Positions 6,841 to 19,772 are shown, counted from the first letter of the stretch. The stretch: DNA of 64,000 nt from an uncultured Gammaproteobacteria bacterium (GCA_964424775.1 CAYRJZ010000001.1:140748-204747); one strand, 5' to 3'. Numbers and translations are program-made. Notes: generated by a model from the sequence alone, not told the origin.

Positions 6841-7545
6841 TTATTTTTCCTTCTTATAAATATTAAAAGCGTATGGAATGATGTGTGCAAAGTGATAGAG
6901 GTTAAATAAGAAGAAGATTGAAAGTGCAGAGTATGTTAATAACATTCGAAGTGTTCCATATTTTCTAAATCGTCTGTCAGAGACATACACTGTTTGTGAA
7001 ATTATTCCGAATTTACCCTTCCGTGCGGCATTTCTTATAAAAGCAATATCATCATAACGGAGCGATATGTTAAATTTTACTTTCTCAAATAATTTTTTCT
7101 TTACTATAATTGCAGACCCCGCACCGGAAGGAAATAGCTTTTGGAGTAGAAAAAAAAGTGATGAAAAGTAAATATAAATGGAGGTAATTGGGAGTGTCGA
7201 TTGATACGGCATGTACCAGGGACAAGCGATATGTAATTTCTTTTTTACCAATTCGTTGACTGCATCTCTAATGAAGGTAGGTTTTAGACGAACGTCAGCG
7301 TCTAAAAAGAAGAGAATATCTCCCGAAGCTTTTACTCCGCCTAATGTTCTTTGTCTTGCAACAGGAGGATGACATTGAATAAAGATAATACTGGGGAAAT
7401 TTGCTAGTAGCTTTTTTGTGTTATCTACTGAGTAAGCGTCAACGACAATTATTTCCTTAGGTAGAAGTGTTTGAGTTGAGAGGTCTTTGAGGAGTAATGG
7501 TAATGTTTTTTCTTCATTCAGCGTTGGAATAATGACACTAATCAT
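6841..7545 (-). CDS. Family 2 glycosyltransferase (GT-A fold)
   Basis: N-terminal MISVIIPTLNEE and a DAD acidic motif (FFLDADVRL), typical of GT2. It is 234 aa. Confidence 0.65.
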   Translation of the reverse strand: MISVIIPTLNEEKTLPLLLKDLSTQTLLPKEIIVVDAYSVDNTKKLLANFPSIIFIQCHPPVARQRTLGGVKASGDILFFLDADVRLKPTFIRDAVNELVKKKLHIACPWYMPYQSTLPITSIYIYFSSLFFLLQKLFPSGAGSAIIVKKKLFEKVKFNISLRYDDIAFIRNAARKGKFGIISQTVYVSDRRFRKYGTLRMLLTYSALSIFFLFNLYHFAHIIPYAFNIYKKEK

Positions 7546-7551
7546 AAATAG

Positions 7552-8097
7552 TTAGGAGGAATGAAGAGAAAAAAGTTTTTGGAACAGAGGATTTGTTTCA
7601 AGCAGTTGTGCTTCTTCTACACACCATTCTGAGTACTCATTCGGTAAAGAGATTTCTTCTAAAAACTTTTTCCATGGAACATATCTTGTTTCTGCGACTT
7701 CATCAGGATTGGGTATTGGCAACTCATCAGTAAAGCCAATCATCACTGGACAAATTTCATTTTCAACTATTCCTTTATGTTCATAGCGGTAACGATAATT
7801 TGGAAGGATAATTGATAGGTCAATATTTGTTAAATTAAGTTCAAAAGAAAGTCTTCTTTTCCCTGCATCTACAACGCTCTCATCCATCATCGGATGTCCA
7901 CAACAACTATTTGACCAAATAAGTGGCCAGGTCTTTTTTTTGTTACTTCTTCTCTGAAGAAGTAAATTTCCGTCTCTATTAAAGAGAAAAACAGAAAATC
8001 CCCGGTGAAGGGGAGTTGTGTCGCTATGGGCATCATACTTATCCATGGTCCCAAGCGGAATATTTTTTTCATCAACTAAGACAACATATTCTTTCAT
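7552..8097 (-). CDS. idi: Isopentenyl-diphosphate delta-isomerase, type 1 (Nudix fold)
   Basis: QRRSNKKKTWPLIWSNSCCGHP and EHKGIVENEICPVMIG align with the E. coli Idi active-site region ([22 protein letters not shown]...). The start is taken at the internal ATG (MKEYVVLVDE) because the track start at 8181 overlaps the neighbouring gene. Confidence 0.8.
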   Translation of the reverse strand: MKEYVVLVDEKNIPLGTMDKYDAHSDTTPLHRGFSVFLFNRDGNLLLQRRSNKKKTWPLIWSNSCCGHPMMDESVVDAGKRRLSFELNLTNIDLSIILPNYRYRYEHKGIVENEICPVMIGFTDELPIPNPDEVAETRYVPWKKFLEEISLPNEYSEWCVEEAQLLETNPLFQKLFSLHSS

Positions 8098-8125
8098 ATA
8101 TCTTTGGTAACTATAGCATAGAAGA

Positions 8126-9265
8126 TTACTTTGTTGAACGAGAAGTATTTGAGGAAATAAAATCAAAAACTGTTTGAACAAGTCCTCCTAGTACCATAAG
8201 GTATAGGATAAAGATGCTAAACCAACCAAGAATAGGAATAAATGAAAGAAGTAGTACTACAACTGGCCCAAGTACCGCAGCTTTCCAGTCGAGCACATAT
8301 TCTTTTTTATTTCTTTTTTCCCACCAGCTAAGAATTTTTGCTCCAACATAGATCTTGAGTAAGCCAAGCGAAAGAAGGAGCAAGAGTATATACACAACAA
8401 ACCAGGTAATTCCTAACCAGATAATAATGAGGAGGAACAACCCCGCAACTGGCATAAGGAAAAGTGAACTAAATCCAAGTCCTAAACTCTTGATCTTTGA
8501 TAACTCAATTTTCTCGAGTACTTCCTTCGTAATAAATCCGAGAACGAGGACAAATAAGAGACTGAAGAGAATATCCATAACTAATGTGTAAATGGTACCT
8601 GCGCTGATGAGTGCTTTTGCTTGTTCATTACTTCGATGTTCTTGCTCTGTATAACGAGTATTTCCTTTGACAACAGCTCCCTCCTGAGATATCACTTTCT
8701 CCTCAGAGGTATACGTTAAATCGCCTGCAATTGATGCAGAAGATCCTATTGTTAGTTGTCCCATATTGCCTGAAACATCTCCTCCAACTGGTGCATTTAT
8801 GCGGACATCACCACCATTTGCATACACATTTCCTTTTACTGGACCTTCAACTTCTAACGTACCTCCGGTTATTATGAGGTCTCCTCCAACAGATGATGTT
8901 TTAGAGAGTCGTATAGTGCCCCCTGCAACAATAAGATCTTCTCCAATGGAGTCTTCGATGGTGATTGTTCCTCCGGCAATTCGTGCAGATTGTGAAATAG
9001 GACCGCTGATTGTAATAGTGCCACCAGCTGCCATAAGGCTTCTCTGTATCTCGCCTTCAAAAAGAAGAGTTCCTCCTGCAGCGACGATATCTTTTTGCGA
9101 AGATACACTTACCTCAACTCGGTCACCAGCAAGATACGTGTTTTCAAGAAGGGGGGTTTTTGAGAAAAAGACGTTTTCACCACTTTTAAATGTCGCTGCT
9201 GAAGCTGACGGTGTGAAAAGAAGCAGGAGACAAATGAGTAAAATGATCTTTTTGATGAGTTTCAT
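8126..9265 (-). CDS. Membrane protein with a signal peptide, bactofilin-like beta-helix repeats and four C-terminal transmembrane helices
   Basis: Start taken at MKLIKKIILLICLLLLFTPSASA, a signal peptide. Then about ten imperfect repeats of roughly 17 aa (AGGTITISGP / AGGTIRLSK / TGGTLEVEG / NGGDVRINAP) resembling bactofilin/DUF583-type right-handed beta-helix units. These are followed by four hydrophobic helices. Confidence 0.55.
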   Translation of the reverse strand: MKLIKKIILLICLLLLFTPSASAATFKSGENVFFSKTPLLENTYLAGDRVEVSVSSQKDIVAAGGTLLFEGEIQRSLMAAGGTITISGPISQSARIAGGTITIEDSIGEDLIVAGGTIRLSKTSSVGGDLIITGGTLEVEGPVKGNVYANGGDVRINAPVGGDVSGNMGQLTIGSSASIAGDLTYTSEEKVISQEGAVVKGNTRYTEQEHRSNEQAKALISAGTIYTLVMDILFSLLFVLVLGFITKEVLEKIELSKIKSLGLGFSSLFLMPVAGLFLLIIIWLGITWFVVYILLLLLSLGLLKIYVGAKILSWWEKRNKKEYVLDWKAAVLGPVVVLLLSFIPILGWFSIFILYLMVLGGLVQTVFDFISSNTSRSTK

Positions 9266-9334
9266 TTCCACTATAATAGCATTACTAAACCATATTATAC
9301 CAAGGATTACAATGATATTGATCACACAGTAAAT

Positions 9335-10156
9335 ATGAAAAAATTAATAAAAATTAGTCGACCACGATTTTGGATCTATTTATTCGGCCCATTCTTAATT
9401 GGACTTGCCGTAGGAGGAATAAATAGAGATTATTTTTCTCTTGATCTCCTAGTCTTGGGTCTTTATTTTCTCTTTCCTGCAAACTTTCTTTTGTATGGTA
9501 TAAATGATATTTTTGATTATGCTACAGATAAACTCAATCCAAAGAAAAAGAAGTATGAAGAACTCGTTACTCCAAAAGAACAAAAAAGACTTTTTCAACG
9601 AATACTTCTCTTAACACTGCCTTTTTTTATCTATAGCGTATTTATCTCCCTTGAAGTAGGCACACTTTTGGGGTTATTTGTACTTCTTTCTCTGCAGTAT
9701 TCCTCTCCTCCCATAAGAGCAAAGTCTAAACCATTTCTTGATATGGTATTTAATGGGCTGTATATTATCCCAGGTATTATTTCCTATTTTATTATTTCCG
9801 GAACATATCCATCTCCTCTCATTATTTTTTCTGCACTGTTTTGGACTATGGCAATGCACGCATATTCAGCTGTCCCAGATATTAGTGTTGATAGAAATGC
9901 ACATATTCAGACAATAGCAACGCAATTAGGTTTTACACCAACACTCTATCTGTGTCTTGTCTTATATATCATTTCAGCACTACTTATTTATCCGTTTCTA
10001 GGAGTTTTTGCCATCTTTGTTGCACTTATTTATGTCACTTTAATGTCACTCTCTCTCATGAGTAATGAAACAGACATATTCTCTCTTTATAAGAAATTCC
10101 CAATCATAAATACCATTGTAGGAGGACTATTATTTTTCTATCTTTTGTTAAAGTGA
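9335..10156 (+). CDS. UbiA-family membrane prenyltransferase, possibly a lycopene-elongase-like enzyme
   Basis: 273 aa with 7-8 predicted TM helices and the UbiA-superfamily Asp-rich motif NDIFDYATD (NDxxDxxxD). It lies within the crt gene cluster. Confidence 0.6.
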   Translation: MKKLIKISRPRFWIYLFGPFLIGLAVGGINRDYFSLDLLVLGLYFLFPANFLLYGINDIFDYATDKLNPKKKKYEELVTPKEQKRLFQRILLLTLPFFIYSVFISLEVGTLLGLFVLLSLQYSSPPIRAKSKPFLDMVFNGLYIIPGIISYFIISGTYPSPLIIFSALFWTMAMHAYSAVPDISVDRNAHIQTIATQLGFTPTLYLCLVLYIISALLIYPFLGVFAIFVALIYVTLMSLSLMSNETDIFSLYKKFPIINTIVGGLLFFYLLLK

Positions 10157-11647
10157 AGATAATGGATGAGATGACTTTATTCCTTGAATTCTTTTATATG
10201 CAAGTTCTGCACTAATGAGACAAATAGGGACACCTATACCAGGATTGGTATTTCCTCCGACATAATAGAGATTTTTTACTTTTTTGCTTTTATTATTTGG
10301 TCGAAAAATAGCTGTTTGTTTAAGTGTATGAGCAAGACCTAAAGCAGATCCTTTATAGCTATTGTATCTTTCTTCAAATTCTCTTACTGAGAAGAATTCC
10401 TCAACTTCAAGATGCGTTTTGATATTTGGTACTTTCATAGTATCTTCTAAAAATTGATACGTTTTATTTTTATATATTTCTATATCATTTTTTGTTAAAG
10501 TCATTCCTGGTGCAATTGGTACAAGCACAAAAAGATTTTCTTTACCAGAAGGAGCCACACTTGGATCAGTATAGCTTGGACAGCACACATATAAGGATGG
10601 ATCATTAGGGAGTTGGGGATGTTCAAATATTTGAGAAAAATTTCGTTTCCAGTTATTTGAAAAATATAAATTATGATGAACTAAACTTTTAACTTTCGTG
10701 TTAAGTCCAAGATATAAAAGAAACGTTGAGGGAGCAAGTGTTTTTTTTCCCCAGTAATCCTCATTATACGTTTGTGATTCAGGTTCAAGGAGAACCGTTT
10801 CAGTGTGATGCATATCTGCATTTGAGATGACAAGATCTGCTTGAATTCGTTCGTTTCCAATTTTTACCCCAGTTGTAGTTCCATTTTCTACAACAATTTT
10901 TGTAATCGAAGAGGATGTATGGTATGTAACTCCATGTTTTTTTCCAATGGCTACGAGACTTTTTACGATTTCATACATTCCTCCCATCGGGTAAAATACG
11001 CCCATATTAAAATCAATATGGCTCATAATGTTATAGAGTGCAGGAGTGTTATACGGTGATGCACCAAGAAACACGAGATGATACATGAGGATTTTTCTCA
11101 TTTCATCTGATGAGAATCTCTTTGAAACATAGGAATCCATTGATTCGAAAACAGAAAGTTTACTTCCCCTCGTCATGAGATCCCATGTAAAAAAATCTTT
11201 GATAGAATTATAATTTTTGTACATAAAATTATTGATTGCAATTTCATATTGACGTTTTGCTGTGTCTAAATACTTATCTAGTTTTTCTAAGCTATTTTCT
11301 TCAAAATTCTCAAATATCCTTTTGTTTTTTTGCATATCGGAAAAAACATCAACTGGCTTTTCTTTTCCGCTAAAGAAAATTCTGTATGAGGGAGATAGTT
11401 TAACGAGTTTGAGATGATCTTCTACCCGTTCTCCAAGGAGTTTATAGAAATGTTCAAAAACATCCGGCATGAGGTACCACGATGGTCCCATATCAAAAAT
11501 GAACCCTTTTTTCTTTAGGATATTACATCTACCACCAAGAGTTGCGTTTTTTTCAAAGAGTTCAACTGAGTATCCTTTTTTTGCAAGAAGTGCAGCTGCT
11601 GCAAGTCCACCTATTCCGCCACCAATAATAATAACTTTTTTTTTCAT
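10148..11647 (-). CDS. crtI: Phytoene desaturase family oxidoreductase (CrtI/CrtN-type)
   Basis: N-terminal FAD-binding VIIIGGGIGGLAAAALLAKKGY. The IFDMGPSWYLMPDVFE motif is characteristic of CrtI-family desaturases. It is 499 aa. Confidence 0.8.
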   Translation of the reverse strand: MKKKVIIIGGGIGGLAAAALLAKKGYSVELFEKNATLGGRCNILKKKGFIFDMGPSWYLMPDVFEHFYKLLGERVEDHLKLVKLSPSYRIFFSGKEKPVDVFSDMQKNKRIFENFEENSLEKLDKYLDTAKRQYEIAINNFMYKNYNSIKDFFTWDLMTRGSKLSVFESMDSYVSKRFSSDEMRKILMYHLVFLGASPYNTPALYNIMSHIDFNMGVFYPMGGMYEIVKSLVAIGKKHGVTYHTSSSITKIVVENGTTTGVKIGNERIQADLVISNADMHHTETVLLEPESQTYNEDYWGKKTLAPSTFLLYLGLNTKVKSLVHHNLYFSNNWKRNFSQIFEHPQLPNDPSLYVCCPSYTDPSVAPSGKENLFVLVPIAPGMTLTKNDIEIYKNKTYQFLEDTMKVPNIKTHLEVEEFFSVREFEERYNSYKGSALGLAHTLKQTAIFRPNNKSKKVKNLYYVGGNTNPGIGVPICLISAELAYKRIQGIKSSHPLSSL

Positions 11648-12706
11648 TTATGAATTTCGAGCAAGGTTGTAGGAAAGAAGTTCTGATAAAACTGTTTTAT
11701 ATTTTTCAGAAATTTTTAAATCTTCGATAAGTGTCTGTGCACCATGTGCTAACTTAGTCATTTCATTCTGTATCTCGTCACGGGTTCCTGTTTTAGTAAT
11801 AATATTTCGCACATACTCTATCATCTCAGGAGTAAGATCTTTATTTCCAAAAATTTTGGAAAGCCTTTCTTTCTCAGTAGAATTTACTTTATTGAATAAT
11901 GTTGTGTAGTAAAGTGTTTTCTTTTCTTCGCGAATGTCAGAGCCAACTGGTTTTCCAATTTTTTCTTCATTTCCAAATAGACCAAGTTCATCATCTCTCA
12001 TTTGAAAAATTATTCCGAGGGATTCACCCAATCTCTCAAGTGATTTCAGGACACTTCTGGACTCACCACACAGAAGCGCGCCGGCCAGAAGTGGAAGGGT
12101 AAAGGTATAGCGTGCAGTTTTATAGGTATACATTGCAAGAATTTGTTCTTCTGTTACTCTTTTATCACTTCCTCCAAAGTAAACATCCTGCATCTGCATG
12201 AGGCCAACAGCAGTCATTTCATCAGAGAAGAGTTGAATAATTCGTGTTTTTCTGTCAGGGTCTCCCTGGAGCTGAGATAAAAGAGAATATGCAAGAAAAA
12301 AACCAATATCACCTACACATATACCCATACTTATCCCAAATTGGTGAGGGGAGGAAAGGTGCTCTTTTTCTCCTAAATCTTCATATTGGGCAAAGATAGT
12401 ACGTTGTCCTCTTCGAGTGTAATCATTATCCATAATGTCATCATGGATAAGAAGAGAGGTATGGAGGAGTTCTAATGCAACAGCAAGATGTAATCCGTCT
12501 TCTGAGTTCTGTCCTGAAAACATTTCTTCAGAAAGAAGAACAAGCCCTCCTCGAATCATTTTTCCCTCAGTTGCGAAATCTTGCAATCTATGGAGAACAT
12601 CAGGGCCAAACATATTAATTTTATGCAGTTGAGCTTCTTGCCTTTTTAAGTAGGAAAGAAGATGATGTGAGATCACAAATTTTTTTTCTTTAAAATACTT
12701 TTCCAT
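11648..12706 (-). CDS. crtE: Polyprenyl diphosphate synthase (GGPP/FPP synthase family)
   Basis: First Asp-rich motif LIHDDIMDNDYTRRG and second motif FQMRDDELG. The start may instead be the internal Met at about 12613, because 12706 overlaps crtB by 17 nt. Confidence 0.8.
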   Translation of the reverse strand: MEKYFKEKKFVISHHLLSYLKRQEAQLHKINMFGPDVLHRLQDFATEGKMIRGGLVLLSEEMFSGQNSEDGLHLAVALELLHTSLLIHDDIMDNDYTRRGQRTIFAQYEDLGEKEHLSSPHQFGISMGICVGDIGFFLAYSLLSQLQGDPDRKTRIIQLFSDEMTAVGLMQMQDVYFGGSDKRVTEEQILAMYTYKTARYTFTLPLLAGALLCGESRSVLKSLERLGESLGIIFQMRDDELGLFGNEEKIGKPVGSDIREEKKTLYYTTLFNKVNSTEKERLSKIFGNKDLTPEMIEYVRNIITKTGTRDEIQNEMTKLAHGAQTLIEDLKISEKYKTVLSELLSYNLARNS

Positions 12707-13523
12707 TATTTAATGTCCTCAACAGAGCTGTAGATGCAATGCGGAAGATACTTGGCTTAATTTTTTGTGAGTATACTATAAAAGGATTATTATAGATTTG
12801 CTCTGCGCTCCACATGTACATTATAGCAGCTGTTTCTATAGGTATCCGCGATTTTTTGGAGATAAATTTAAAACCATCAAAGGCATTTTGCTGCCATTTT
12901 CTATATCTATTAATTTCACTTCTTATAAGTGCTATAAATTGCTTTGGGTTTTCTCGTGCAGTTTTTTCACGGAGATCAGATAGGCTATATTTTTGAAGAA
13001 CAATGTGAGGGATGTATGTTCTCCCTAACTCATTATCTTCAGCAATATCACGAATGAAATTAATGTACTGCATGGCACGACCTTGAAGAGATGCAGTTTT
13101 ATATGTCTCACTGGGTAAATGCAGAATTTTAGCCATCATCAGTCCAATTACTTCAGCAGAACCGTACATATACTCTTCTGTTTCTTTAAATGTTATATAT
13201 TTTTTTTTCGTAAGATCATTTGACATTGAGGTGAAAAACGCTTCCACCCATTTTTTTTCAAAATTCATTCTATGAAAAAGCTCTCCAAATTCAGAGACTA
13301 TTCGAATTGGTGAATGACCTGTTATTAAATAATCTTTCCAAGACTTTTTGAATGAATGAAATCCTTCTTTGTCTTGAGGCAGAGTGTCTACGAAGTTATC
13401 TACTGTACGGACAAAGGCATAAAGAATAAAAACATCTTTGCGGATTTCTTTAGGGAAAAAGAGAGAACTATAAAAATAGGTTTTACTCCCTTTTTTCATG
13501 ATCTGAAATGAAGAAGGTGACAT
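12690..13523 (-). CDS. crtB: Phytoene/squalene synthase family protein
   Basis: Trans-isoprenyl diphosphate synthase head-to-head fold with the motif YAFVRTVDNFVD, a variant of YxxxRxxDDxxD. It is co-oriented with crtE and crtI. Confidence 0.75.
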   Translation of the reverse strand: MSPSSFQIMKKGSKTYFYSSLFFPKEIRKDVFILYAFVRTVDNFVDTLPQDKEGFHSFKKSWKDYLITGHSPIRIVSEFGELFHRMNFEKKWVEAFFTSMSNDLTKKKYITFKETEEYMYGSAEVIGLMMAKILHLPSETYKTASLQGRAMQYINFIRDIAEDNELGRTYIPHIVLQKYSLSDLREKTARENPKQFIALIRSEINRYRKWQQNAFDGFKFISKKSRIPIETAAIMYMWSAEQIYNNPFIVYSQKIKPSIFRIASTALLRTLNNGKVF

Positions 13524-13587: not shown

Positions 13588-14634
13588 ATGTATCGTGCAG
13601 AAAGTAAAATAGAAACTGTTATTAATAGAGCAATTGAAAAAAAAGTATTCCCTGGATGTGTCGTAGGTATTTATGACAATGGACAAGTCCATGTTTATCC
13701 TTTTGGAAAGTATACGTATAATCAATCCTCGCATTCAGTTGCATCTGATACTCTTTATGATATTGCCTCTTTAACGAAAGTGATCCCAACATCACTTCTC
13801 ACACTCCATTTGATTGATAGAGATTACATTGATCTCAATACCTCAGTTGCATCTTTGCTTCCACTATTTGAAGGAAAATATAAAAATAAAGTAACACTTT
13901 TCCACCTCCTCACCCAGACGGTTACTTTTCCATTTACTCTTTCTGCTTATACTTCCCTTTCAGCAGATGAATTACGCTCTCTTATTCTTACCTCAGATCT
14001 TGTTTGTCTCCCGGGTACACAGTTCACCTATACAAACGCATCAAGCATTCTTTTGGGATGGGTCATAGAAAAAGTAACGGGTAAAAGCCTAGCAAAAGCA
14101 GCAAAAGATATGTTATTTGAGCCTCTTCAGTTAATTCATACTACTTTTATCCCACCAGTTGAGATGAGCGTTCCGACAGAAATACAGGATGGTAAAGAGA
14201 TTTATGGAGTAGTGCATGATGAAAGCGCTCGGATATTTAGTAGGAAAAGAAATTATGTAGGATCTGCTGGAGTATTCTCAAGTGCAGGAGATATTCTTAA
14301 AATTTTAGAGATAATTTTAAAAGATGGCAAAATCGGTGAATCTATTTTTTTATCAAAAAAGATTATTTCTTTGATGGAGACAAATCAGCTCGCTAATATA
14401 GGTGTTTCGCATGGTCTAGGATGGGAGTTAGATCAGGAGATTTTTATGGGAAAAATTTCAAAAGGAAGGACAATTGGCAAAACTGGCTTTACAGGGTGTA
14501 GTATGATGGTAAATAGAGAACAGCAAAAAGCATTAGTAATATTGTCAAACCATATTTATCCTCACAGACGTGTGAGTCGTGAATCTATAAATAGTTTGAG
14601 GCAAGAATGCGCTGAAGCAGTATTCCAGGGGTAA
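13588..14634 (+). CDS. Serine hydrolase of the beta-lactamase/transpeptidase fold (class C / esterase-like)
   Basis: S-x-x-K (SLTK), Y-x-N (YTNAS) and K-T-G (GKTGFTG) motifs in the canonical order. Confidence 0.7.
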   Translation: MYRAESKIETVINRAIEKKVFPGCVVGIYDNGQVHVYPFGKYTYNQSSHSVASDTLYDIASLTKVIPTSLLTLHLIDRDYIDLNTSVASLLPLFEGKYKNKVTLFHLLTQTVTFPFTLSAYTSLSADELRSLILTSDLVCLPGTQFTYTNASSILLGWVIEKVTGKSLAKAAKDMLFEPLQLIHTTFIPPVEMSVPTEIQDGKEIYGVVHDESARIFSRKRNYVGSAGVFSSAGDILKILEIILKDGKIGESIFLSKKIISLMETNQLANIGVSHGLGWELDQEIFMGKISKGRTIGKTGFTGCSMMVNREQQKALVILSNHIYPHRRVSRESINSLRQECAEAVFQG

Positions 14635-14638
14635 AAAT

Positions 14639-15271
14639 ATGAAAAAAATTAAAGAGGGGATATATAAGCATTATAAAGGCAACAACTATCAAGTAATTGG
14701 TACTGCTCATCATAGTGAAACGCTTGAAGAAGTAGTTGTGTATAAAGCACTTTATGATCATAAAGAGTATGGGAAAGATGCATTGTGGGTTCGTCCTGCA
14801 AAGATGTTTGTTGAGAAGATTGAAAAAAATGGTAAAGTGCTGAATCGTTTTTCTTTTGAACACCCCTCCCCTCCTCATCCCAGAGTAGGTGTTGGGATAA
14901 TTGTCGTCAGAAAAGGGAAAGTATTAATGGGAAAAAGAAAGGGGGCTCATGGAGAAGGAGCATGGTCAGTTCCAGGAGGTAATCTTGAGTATGGAGAAAA
15001 TATTGAAGAATGTGCAGTTCGAGAGGTATTTGAAGAAACGGGAATAAAGATTAAGGATACTCAATTCATAACAGTTACAAATGACGTTTTTCAAAAAGAA
15101 AATAAACACTATATAACTTTATGGATGAGAGCGTCGTCGAATAGTGGGAAAATAGTGATTTCAGAACCTGATAAATTCTTAGAAATAAAATGGGTAGATC
15201 CTGAACAACTACCCAAACCTATTTTCTTACCATTAGTACATTTTCTTAAAAGGTATTCTCTCACTGAATAA
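14639..15271 (+). CDS. DUF1653 domain fused to a NUDIX hydrolase
   Basis: The N-terminal 70 aa, GIYKHYKGNNYQVIGTAHHSETLEEVVVYKALY...WVRPAKMF, match the DUF1653 consensus. The C-terminus carries a Nudix box GKRKGAHGEGAWSVPGGNLEYGENIEECAVREVFEETGI. Confidence 0.7.
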   Translation: MKKIKEGIYKHYKGNNYQVIGTAHHSETLEEVVVYKALYDHKEYGKDALWVRPAKMFVEKIEKNGKVLNRFSFEHPSPPHPRVGVGIIVVRKGKVLMGKRKGAHGEGAWSVPGGNLEYGENIEECAVREVFEETGIKIKDTQFITVTNDVFQKENKHYITLWMRASSNSGKIVISEPDKFLEIKWVDPEQLPKPIFLPLVHFLKRYSLTE

Positions 15272-15964: not shown

Positions 15965-16303
15965 ATGAGGTTGGTAACGTATTTACTTATTAATGGTATT
16001 GCGATCTTTCTTGCGTCACAACTACTTGCAGGAGTCCATGTGAATGATTTTGTAACAGCAATTATTATTGCAATTATTTTAGGTTCCCTTAATTTTTCTC
16101 TTAAACCACTTCTTATTATTCTTACTCTTCCATTAAGCATTCTTACGCTTGGATTATTTACCTTTGTTATCAATCTCTTCATACTTTACCTTGTTGACAT
16201 ATTAATAACGGGATTTAGGGTGGATGGCATTTTATGGCTTATACTCTTCAGTATTATTACCTCAATTATCTCCTCATTTCTTAACAAGATGGTAAAAAAT
16301 TAA
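15965..16303 (+). CDS. Small 4-TM membrane protein, DUF360 / holin-family-IV-like
   Basis: 112 aa, strongly hydrophobic, with the architecture of the YvlD/DUF360 family. Confidence 0.5.
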   Translation: MRLVTYLLINGIAIFLASQLLAGVHVNDFVTAIIIAIILGSLNFSLKPLLIILTLPLSILTLGLFTFVINLFILYLVDILITGFRVDGILWLILFSIITSIISSFLNKMVKN

Positions 16304-17853: not shown

Positions 17854-18870
17854 ATGACAATTCTCCCTGAAAAATTATTTGCGCATGATCTAGACTCTGC
17901 TCTCCTCAGGGAGTCATTTCTTGTGTCTGCAGTCGTTTCTATAATTGTCATACGTTTGTTCCTTAAATTAACGGGATATCCCAGCCTAGGTGGTGATTCT
18001 TTACATATTGCTCATATGTTATGGGGTGGGATGCTCATGGTCGTTGCATTTTTTATGCTTCTCTCGTATGTGAGTAAAAAAACGACGGGAATTGCAGCAG
18101 TGATAGGCGGGTTGGGTTTTGGAGCATTTATTGACGAGTTGGGTAAATTTATTACACGTGATAATAATTATTTTTTCCAACCCACTATCGCACTCATATA
18201 TATTATTTTTGTACTTTTATTTATTATTTCTCAAGCGTTATCACGCTATAACAAAATCTCAAAAGAAGAATATCTTATTAACGCACTTGAAGGCGTAAAA
18301 GAGGCAGTACTCAACGATATGGATGTTGAGGAGAAAAAAGTCGCTCTCTCATATCTGAAAAGAAGTGATCAAAATAATGCTTTAACTATTGCTCTCACCA
18401 ACTATCTTAAGAATGTTGAGTCACTTCCTTCTCCTCAACAAAGTATTTTTACTCGTATTAGGCATATTATTTTGACGTATTACCGAAGAACTGCTCAATC
18501 TGCATTCCTAACAAAAACAGTTGCTTTTATACTCCTTTTTCAATCTCTCTCAACGATTATCATTTCTCTTAATCTTTTACTTACCCGTACGCATCTCCCT
18601 TTTGATGAATTAGGGAAGTTAATATCGTCATGTGCATCTGCACTTATCGTTTTATTTGGAATTCTCCTGCTTCGATTTTCAAAAAGACGAGCATATAGAG
18701 CATTTAAGATATCTCTTTTTATCTCAATATTTTTTACACAATTTTTTCTTCTTTACACAGTTGAAATTTTGTCGTTTCTCACACTTGGAGTAAATATTCT
18801 TTTATTACTTGTTGTTGATTATGTAATCGCAGATGAAGAGAAAAAACTAGATCAATTAAATGCTTCGTAA
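17854..18870 (+). CDS. Multi-pass membrane protein, hypothetical
   Basis: 338 aa with about 8 hydrophobic helices. No catalytic motif. Confidence 0.5.
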   Translation: MTILPEKLFAHDLDSALLRESFLVSAVVSIIVIRLFLKLTGYPSLGGDSLHIAHMLWGGMLMVVAFFMLLSYVSKKTTGIAAVIGGLGFGAFIDELGKFITRDNNYFFQPTIALIYIIFVLLFIISQALSRYNKISKEEYLINALEGVKEAVLNDMDVEEKKVALSYLKRSDQNNALTIALTNYLKNVESLPSPQQSIFTRIRHIILTYYRRTAQSAFLTKTVAFILLFQSLSTIIISLNLLLTRTHLPFDELGKLISSCASALIVLFGILLLRFSKRRAYRAFKISLFISIFFTQFFLLYTVEILSFLTLGVNILLLLVVDYVIADEEKKLDQLNAS

Positions 18871-19772
18871 ACTTTTTGGGAGAGAATTGCAATTCTCTCC
18901 GCTGCTGCGTTTGGATCATTGCTTTCGGATAAGACGATGAGAAGATAATCCCCTTTCTTTGTAAAAACAATTCCTGCATCATGTTTTACTCCGTTCAGTT
19001 CTCCTGTTTTATGTGCAACCTGAAGTGAGTTTGGGAGGTATTTAGGAATACGATCATTGAGTCTTTGTTTTTTTAATAATTCTTTCATTTCTTTCGATGC
19101 ATTTTCTGAGATAAGTTTATTCGAGTAGAGCAATTCAAAGTAAAGCGCAATATCTTTTGCAGTGGTTTGAGGTAAAGTAGTTGATGTTCCAATTGAAGAC
19201 TGAGTAAGGCCATACTCTTTGAGAAATTGCGCCATTTTGGAAACACCAATTTTGCTTGATAAGAGAAGTGCAGAATAATTGTCTGAAATCGTGATCATTT
19301 TTTCAGCTGCATCTTCAACGCTCAGTTCAATTCTTCCTTCAGTTTGTTCAGCAGATTCTGAAGCGATATCATATTTTTCATTCAGTGCAGAGATATCTGC
19401 ACTGAGTATTGTTTCTTTTTTAAGAGTTTTTGATTCAAGTTGATCATAGACAACTGCAAGAAGCCATAGTTTGTAGAGACTGGCTGAAATATATTTTCGT
19501 TCAGGATTTTGAGAGAATGTCTCATTTGTTTTCATATTTTTTACCACAACACTATATGTTCCTTTTGTTCCAATTAAAGCATCTTCTATTCCTTTCTCAA
19601 GTTTTCTATTTTGGATAGAAAGGACTTCAACTGTTGGATTTGATGTTTGAATCACTGGAGATATGAGGGATTTAGTTTTTTCTTTAGTGAGAAGTAGGAG
19701 AAGAAAGAAAGACAAAAACATAAGACTAAGAAAAACTGAAGTAAAAAAGAAAAAGGCTTTAAGTATCTTCAT
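18852..19772 (-). CDS. Class A beta-lactamase-like / PBP-fold serine hydrolase with an N-terminal membrane anchor
   Basis: SLYK (S-x-x-K), SDN and KTG motifs are present in order. There is an N-terminal hydrophobic segment. Confidence 0.55.
   Translation of the reverse strand: MKILKAFFFFTSVFLSLMFLSFFLLLLLTKEKTKSLISPVIQTSNPTVEVLSIQNRKLEKGIEDALIGTKGTYSVVVKNMKTNETFSQNPERKYISASLYKLWLLAVVYDQLESKTLKKETILSADISALNEKYDIASESAEQTEGRIELSVEDAAEKMITISDNYSALLLSSKIGVSKMAQFLKEYGLTQSSIGTSTTLPQTTAKDIALYFELLYSNKLISENASKEMKELLKKQRLNDRIPKYLPNSLQVAHKTGELNGVKHDAGIVFTKKGDYLLIVLSESNDPNAAAERIAILSQKVYEAFN

Follow-up and report, generated by a model that had tools for sequence, protein, structure and literature searches.

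The locus examined here raises the question of whether a protein with an exported bactofilin-like domain on a polytopic membrane anchor, encoded in the middle of a pigment gene cluster, is a functional part of that cluster. The initial annotation of the window, i.e., of the whole 64,000-nucleotide stretch of DNA that was analyzed, had placed the gene (hereafter the target) at positions 8126-9265 between idi and a UbiA prenyltransferase gene, found no obvious described role for its product, and suggested that it might scaffold or bind hydrophobic products at the membrane surface. The strand, which had been left unstated, is the minus strand (9265..8126).

Translated from ATG 9265, the target comprises 379 amino acids plus a stop codon. 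The database entry P0001, which carries a precomputed match to Pfam PF26514 (DUF8173), is 100% identical to it and reaches 399 amino acids through an upstream start at GTG 9325. An extended -10 promoter-like box, TGGTATAAT, was read directly from the minus strand at 9302-9294, 28 nt upstream of the ATG. Agreement with the consensus is all that identifies this box, and this does not prove promoter function. Because this box falls inside the 399-amino-acid gene model, that model is probably 20 codons too long (9266-9325, minus strand), and the box favors ATG 9265 as the start codon; the signal peptide described below begins at this ATG. The GC content of the target is 40.4%, compared to 33-35% for the crt genes and 35-39% for the flanks, a comparison that is uninformative because the target is rich in Gly codons.

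The pigment cluster around the target (6841-13523) looks like a bacterioruberin-type cluster and lies in a Patescibacteria (Levybacteria-like) genome. From upstream to downstream on the minus strand, the order is crtB, a polyprenyl (GGPP-type) synthase gene, a CrtI/D-type desaturase gene, the target, idi, and a GT2 glycosyltransferase gene, while a LyeJ-like UbiA prenyltransferase gene (9335-10156, plus strand) is divergently oriented upstream of the target; the position between idi and UbiA given in the initial annotation was therefore correct. The UbiA prenyltransferase matched PRK12875 with 261 bits, and the desaturase scored 631 bits with NF058655 against a cut-off of 640. The downstream neighbor, idi, encodes a type 1 IPP isomerase (7552..8097, minus strand; NCBIfam PRK03759, 200.7 bits). 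Its mechanically called ORF (7552-8181, from TTG 8181, minus strand) overlaps the 3' end of the target; the in-frame ATG 8097 fits the start of the PRK03759 alignment, at residue 30 of the longer ORF, and lies 28 nt from the target stop codon. Since this gap is only 28 nt long and no terminator-like site was found in it, co-transcription and co-expression of the target with idi are possible in the crt-bearing clade. An extended -10-like box, TGcTATAGT, located just upstream of idi at about 8118-8110, may serve as idi's own promoter.

Genes named lyeJ, crtD, and cruF have been reported earlier in Patescibacteria from Lake Baikal (PMC9948471). In the window, the region from 6.4 to 20.8 kb yielded neither a cruF nor a Caroten_synth gene, and we considered whether the TM domain of the target might stand in for CruF, the bacterioruberin hydratase absent from the cluster; this candidate was rejected, as the family occurs without crt genes and neither the target nor the neighboring ORFs matched Caroten_synth. 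A gene encoding a DUF1653-NUDIX fusion (14639-15271, plus strand) sits between a beta-lactamase-fold gene and orf199. It was seen only in the crt-bearing window and in two crt-bearing relatives (L001 and L002) and was missing at that position in three loci lacking the full cluster (L004, L007, and L017), and it may be part of the isoprenoid cluster.

The N terminus of the target has the features of a Sec-type signal peptide (residues 1-23; 9197..9265, minus strand), as judged by sequence and hydropathy, by conservation in relatives, and by a helix at residues 2-16 in the AlphaFold2 model. After MKLIKK come an uncharged core of 13 residues and the sequence A-S-A|A. Among 116 relatives, the n-region is positive (+1.8) and the AxA|A motif is conserved, with Ala found at position -1 in 108 and at position +1 in 101 of them; cleavage after ASA is probable.

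The segment that follows, residues 24-207 (8645..9196, minus strand), forms a bactofilin-like beta-helix, as indicated by autocorrelation, AlphaFold2 modeling, and profile matches, and is predicted to be extracytoplasmic. The motifs AGGTL, AGGTI (three times), TGGTL, and NGGDV fall at residues 63, 80, 97, 114, 133, and 150, and BLOSUM autocorrelation over residues 24-211, compared to shuffled sequences, was strongest at lag 17 (z = 7.5), with a second maximum at lag 34 (z = 4.8). The AlphaFold2 model, computed with a 116-sequence alignment, shows 10-11 beta-helical rungs, repeating every 17 residues, over residues 24-207; confidence was high for the whole protein (pLDDT 94.6) and for the beta-helix modeled alone (pLDDT 97.8, pTM 0.91). 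The ectodomain is short and close to the membrane, with conserved Gly/Asp turn positions. When the full model and the beta-helix alone were compared to the PDB with Foldseek, no match at E<=0.001 was obtained and only generic beta-helices were returned; the bactofilins 6rib and 2n3d appeared at E about 1. Much of the initial annotation is borne out by these data: the signal peptide, with its n-region charge and AxA|A motif kept across the relatives; the roughly ten repeats of 17 residues with the pattern (A/T/N)GG(T/D)(I/L/V); the beta-helix itself, for which structure prediction had been proposed as a check; and, with export being predicted, the overall reading of an exported bactofilin-like beta-helix on a polytopic C-terminal anchor, supported by the model, the repeats, and the profile matches.

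The number of TM helices needed correction. The C-terminal membrane domain (residues 212-379; 8129..8632, minus strand), delineated by AlphaFold2 secondary structure, hydrophobic moment, and positive-inside charge, is probably the part that Pfam calls DUF8173. Instead of the four TM helices previously assigned, the model contains five (residues 212-241, 257-278, 282-318, 327-341, and 346-378) and one short interfacial helix (residues 243-255), the most amphipathic of all with the highest hydrophobic moment (1.13). Charge statistics over the family place the beta-helix, with a net charge of -9, on the outside, and the loops 242-260 and 305-328 and the C-terminal tail, with +1.7, +2.0, and +1.4, respectively, on the inside; the two hairpin turns are uncharged. 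The tail, predicted to be cytoplasmic, is short (~10 residues) and basic. Altogether, the signal peptide and the positive-inside pattern predict that the beta-helix is positioned at the outer surface of the membrane. Only ~4 non-regular residues (208-211) separate it from TM1, with pLDDT dipping to 75 around residues 211-220, and a long flexible linker before the TM domain is absent from the AlphaFold2 model.

In a mixed alignment of Patescibacteria and haloarchaea, the residues conserved in the membrane domain were G262, G264, P272, G308, W327, G333, P344, G347, and G360. Inside the TM helices this alignment revealed no conserved charged residues, only Gly, Pro, and Trp, and the target has no cytoplasmic output domain. 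These two features speak for the membrane domain being an anchor or oligomerization module and not an enzyme, transporter, or sensor.

Hundreds of full-length relatives of the target were found in a large protein database, most of them from Patescibacteria (Levybacteria, Parcubacteria, and Kaiserbacteria). Their source names are "polymer-forming cytoskeletal protein" or "CcmA (bactofilin family)," and PF26514 (DUF8173) is precomputed for almost all of them. An exhaustive search with the family profile returned 22,654 representatives with E<=1e-3, each standing for a 50%-identity cluster; at E<=1e-30 their number was 9,184. Homology extends to haloarchaea: when the family profile was aligned with Haloplanus WP_340696375 by hhalign, the match reached 99.95% (E 5.3e-38) and spanned both the beta-helix and the TM domain, and BLASTP of the window protein against Haloarcula WP_284011324 gave E 3e-18 over 313 amino acids. 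Both haloarchaeal proteins are plasmid-borne and have the same build as the target, and PF26514 is carried by the haloarchaeal homologues and by about a thousand relatives, which are named "bactofilin family protein" or "DUF8173 domain-containing protein." As a separate observation, in the homologue of Peptoclostridium acidaminophilum (L015, 2426-3608) the beta-helix is annotated as a 249-amino-acid protein, and a separate 143-amino-acid ORF follows it; either the gene is split or frameshifted here, or two genes together make up the same architecture.

With Pfam Bactofilin (PF04519), the target scored 18.0 bits (E 0.0036), short of the threshold of 27.9 bits, and given this score, the signal peptide, the 10-11 windings, and the five-TM anchor, we rejected its classification as a canonical bactofilin. 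Among the 116 relatives, 35 matched PF04519 (best 2.6e-14) and 30 weakly matched FapA (PF03961; best 1.1e-5). A 116-member profile searched against PDB sequences gave the bactofilins 6RIA (E 0.0046) and 2N3D (E 0.019) as its best matches, and hhalign against a TtBac fragment yielded 80% probability with E 1.4e-5. Only the family profile reached bactofilins; phmmer of the single target protein against PDB sequences found nothing, and an NCBIfam search with the target returned no match.

A literature search on PF26514, on DUF8173, and on bactofilins in Patescibacteria or the candidate phyla radiation found nothing relevant under these terms. The architecture, for which the initial annotation saw no obvious described role, has in fact been described, and its topology tested experimentally, for the halofilin HalB (PMC11459167), and the relatives of the target carry PF26514/DUF8173. 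We assign the whole gene (8126..9265, minus strand) to the HalB-type halofilins, or DUF8173 family, on its translation, its 100% identity to P0001, and its AlphaFold2 model, an assignment that rests on the published description of HalB and on the homology of the target to further proteins from haloarchaea that share this architecture. Family membership by homology, like the architecture and the fold class, is thereby established computationally; HalB itself probably corresponds to PF26514.

We then compared the neighborhoods of the relatives. The arrangement UbiA-target-idi is kept in L001, where the target is 88% identical, in L002/L003 (55%), and in the contig of P0003 (58%). Seven further loci (L004-L010) were obtained by a profile search of a genome collection with a 22-sequence alignment; the target is 36-42% identical in these, and two of the seven genomes are labeled Levyibacteriota. 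In all seven and in L018, the orthologue occupies the same place in the same orientation, convergent with rpsI at the end of an rpoA-rplQ-rplM-rpsI block. No crt genes were found near the orthologue in these loci, i.e., in eight of the nine Levybacteria-like genomes at the same locus, and across some 15 kb, L007 and the window are collinear except for the crt genes.

The ninth locus, L017, encodes a target 44% identical and an RpsI 79% identical to those of the window, and its gene order is beta-lactamase-fold, polyprenyl synthase, target, APH, and rpsI. The polyprenyl synthase gene beside the target (3178-4236 of L017) encodes a protein 55% identical to that of the window, and crtB, crtI/D, UbiA, and idi are absent from this locus. 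L017 has the look of an intermediate, one preceding the arrival of the crt genes or following their loss. Across the loci, the identities of the target and RpsI fall together (88/95, 55/81, 44/79, and about 40/65-70%), and because target identity tracks RpsI identity in this way, the target appears to have been vertically inherited. Distant homologues from Parcubacteria-like genomes, Actinomycetota, and haloarchaea lie in unrelated neighborhoods, with crt genes absent in L011-L013, and the neighborhoods of the related loci contain no regulator gene conserved beside the target.

The synteny history computed from these loci shows crt genes on both sides of the target in one small Levybacteria-like clade only, as read from the sequences. 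The simplest history would be that the target resides in a conserved block beside rplM-rpsI and has been inherited vertically, that in some lineages it has a polyprenyl synthase gene for a neighbor, and that crt genes came to flank it in this one clade. The direction of change appears to have been a gain of crt genes here rather than a loss elsewhere; a loss elsewhere would give the same functional conclusion because the protein persists without crt genes. The comparison of gene neighborhoods, which the initial annotation had proposed as a check on co-occurrence with crt genes, does not support a functional linkage: co-occurrence with crt genes is not conserved, nine relatives at the same locus lack crtB, crtI/D, UbiA, and idi, and homologues outside crt clusters, which the annotation itself had named as an argument against the linkage, are present.

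Several further features of these neighborhoods were noted. The gene content and synteny of the five MAGs L006-L010 are Levybacteria-like, with an RpsI 65-70% identical to that of the window and the same locus order; their label, uncultured Gammaproteobacteria, looks like a mislabel. The conserved block of the target also contains two beta-lactamase-fold genes (13588-14634, plus strand, and 18852-19772, minus strand), one class C/PBP4B-like and one Beta-lactamase2/S11-like, and a Phage_holin_4_2 family gene (15965-16303, plus strand); in L004 and L007, the class C-like beta-lactamase-fold gene directly adjoins the target. In haloarchaea, the homologues of Haloplanus and Haloarcula adjoin a type II CAAX endopeptidase gene (L014, 3665-4369; L016, 1348-2091), whose product may be a conserved partner there.

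How then should the location of the target in the window be understood? If the protein were a functional member of the crt cluster, its exported beta-helix would bind or organize carotenoid products or enzymes at the membrane. The gene does lie between UbiA and idi in the window and in three related contigs (L001, L002/L003, and the P0003 contig), it shares its orientation with crtB, the GGPP synthase gene, crtI/D, idi, and the GT2 gene, and the 28 nt that separate it from idi downstream contain no terminator-like site. Against this, nine related genomes keep the orthologue at the same locus without crtB, crtI/D, UbiA, or idi, distant homologues sit in unrelated neighborhoods, and the family exceeds 9,000 clusters at 50% identity across Patescibacteria and Halobacteria, with members also in Chloroflexota and others (PMC11459167); the TGcTATAGT box, moreover, may provide idi with a promoter of its own. 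We consider a carotenoid-binding or -organizing function very unlikely. We hold equally little expectation that, in the small Levybacteria-like clade, a carotenoid operon of the bacterioruberin type has taken in the resident HalB-type gene, which would then share a transcript with idi and the glycosyltransferase gene. If true, regulation would be common to a surface beta-helix scaffold and to a glycosylated carotenoid that stiffens the membrane, the two forming a single module of envelope adaptation, with an old scaffold under new regulatory coupling.

The extracellular location predicted for the beta-helix also brings to mind a surface adhesin, by which an episymbiotic Patescibacteria cell would attach to a host or substrate in the manner of beta-helical adhesins, and the best Foldseek matches, none of them significant, came from beta-helical domains of adhesins or secretion proteins (tapirin, HxuA, and the FHA TPS domain). 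All of these matches had E > 0.04, however, and show no more than a beta-helix of the generic kind; free-living haloarchaea commonly carry the family as well, and the short, membrane-close ectodomain has conserved Gly/Asp turns and no variable binding surface, so adhesion is an improbable function, if one with a slight chance. An active membrane domain, working as a small transporter or channel of the CysZ/EI24 type or in signal transduction, the beta-helix serving as sensor or gate, appears to us very improbable: one of the 116 relatives matched Pfam EI24/CysZ (1.6e-5) and CysZ (3tx3_B) appeared in the Foldseek list with E = 4, but these are isolated matches without significance, conservation in the TM helices is confined to Gly, Pro, and Trp and includes no charged or polar residue, and both a cytoplasmic output domain and a conserved neighboring regulator gene are lacking. 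An anti-sigma or toastrack-type stress sensor was considered separately and rejected, as no zf-HC2, PspC, or LiaF-type domain and no conserved regulator neighbor were found. Taken as a whole, the evidence is probably best explained by a HalB-type halofilin that acts as a surface envelope scaffold and whose position among the crt genes is incidental.

By analogy with Haloferax HalB, the target is most likely a cell-surface envelope scaffold. The protein would be exported by the Sec pathway and then probably cleaved at ASA|A, so that the acidic beta-helix of 10-11 rungs would sit on the outer face of the cytoplasmic membrane, held there with almost no linker by the domain of five TM helices and the interfacial helix, the short basic tail remaining in the cytoplasm. 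In H. volcanii, HalB self-associates into membrane foci or polymers and has a role in cell shape and envelope integrity (PMC11459167). As in HalB and the bactofilins, an uncapped terminal rung, the TM domain, or both might mediate self-association of the target into static foci or short surface polymers, which would act as a mechanical or organizing element of the envelope (membrane, wall, or S-layer) rather than as an enzyme or transporter. It is from this analogy that we infer both surface polymerization and the scaffold role.

With the target read as a member of the HalB halofilin/DUF8173 family and not as a new component of the pigment cluster, the apparent oddity of an exported bactofilin-like domain on a polytopic anchor disappears. 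The DUF8173 family is very large and, in Levybacteria-like Patescibacteria, seems stable and syntenic beside ribosomal protein operons. To our knowledge, no bacterial member of the HalB-type proteins has been studied so far; the work on Haloferax HalB therefore offers a first hypothesis for an envelope-organizing protein in the poorly understood Patescibacteria. The locus is also an example of a carotenoid cluster surrounding unrelated resident genes, and it cautions that membership in a cluster of a single genome is a poor guide to function.

The closest known system is HalB of Haloferax volcanii (HVO_1237, UniProtKB D4GX31; PNAS 2024), an integral membrane protein that carries a Sec/SPI signal and whose N-terminal bactofilin domain is extracellular, with 5 windings in HVO_1237 and as many as 10 in homologues. 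A long flexible linker or unstructured segment leads to five TM helices, a short sixth helix runs parallel to the inner leaflet, and the tail is cytoplasmic; the topology has been verified with HaloTag fusions (PMC11459167). The HalB cluster comprises 2,304 UniProt proteins from Archaea and Bacteria, mostly bacterial and including candidate phyla, and homologues are also found in Chloroflexota and others (PMC11459167). HalB and the target are alike in their Sec signal, extracellular bactofilin-like beta-helix, five TM helices with a short inner-leaflet helix, and cytoplasmic C-terminal tail. They differ in the number of windings (10-11 in the target versus 5 in HVO_1237), in the connection between beta-helix and TM1, which is almost without a linker in the target and a long flexible one in HalB, in the C-terminal tail, which at ~10 residues is very short in the target, unlike that of HVO_1237, and in the host, a Patescibacteria-type bacterium versus Haloferax volcanii.

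Canonical bactofilins (PF04519), such as TtBac of Thermus (6RIA/6RIB) and BacA of Caulobacter (2N3D), share with the target the repeat length and the Gly-rich turns. They are small cytoplasmic proteins of ~6 windings with disordered tails and an N-terminal membrane-targeting peptide, whereas the target, a five-TM integral membrane protein with 10-11 windings and predicted export, falls below the PF04519 cut-off. Proteins of the FapA or BacEF type (PF03961), including BacE/BacF of B. subtilis with 13 windings, resemble the target as long single-stranded beta-solenoids of the bactofilin superfamily; these, however, are cytoplasmic and have neither a signal peptide nor a five-helix membrane domain, whereas the target has both.
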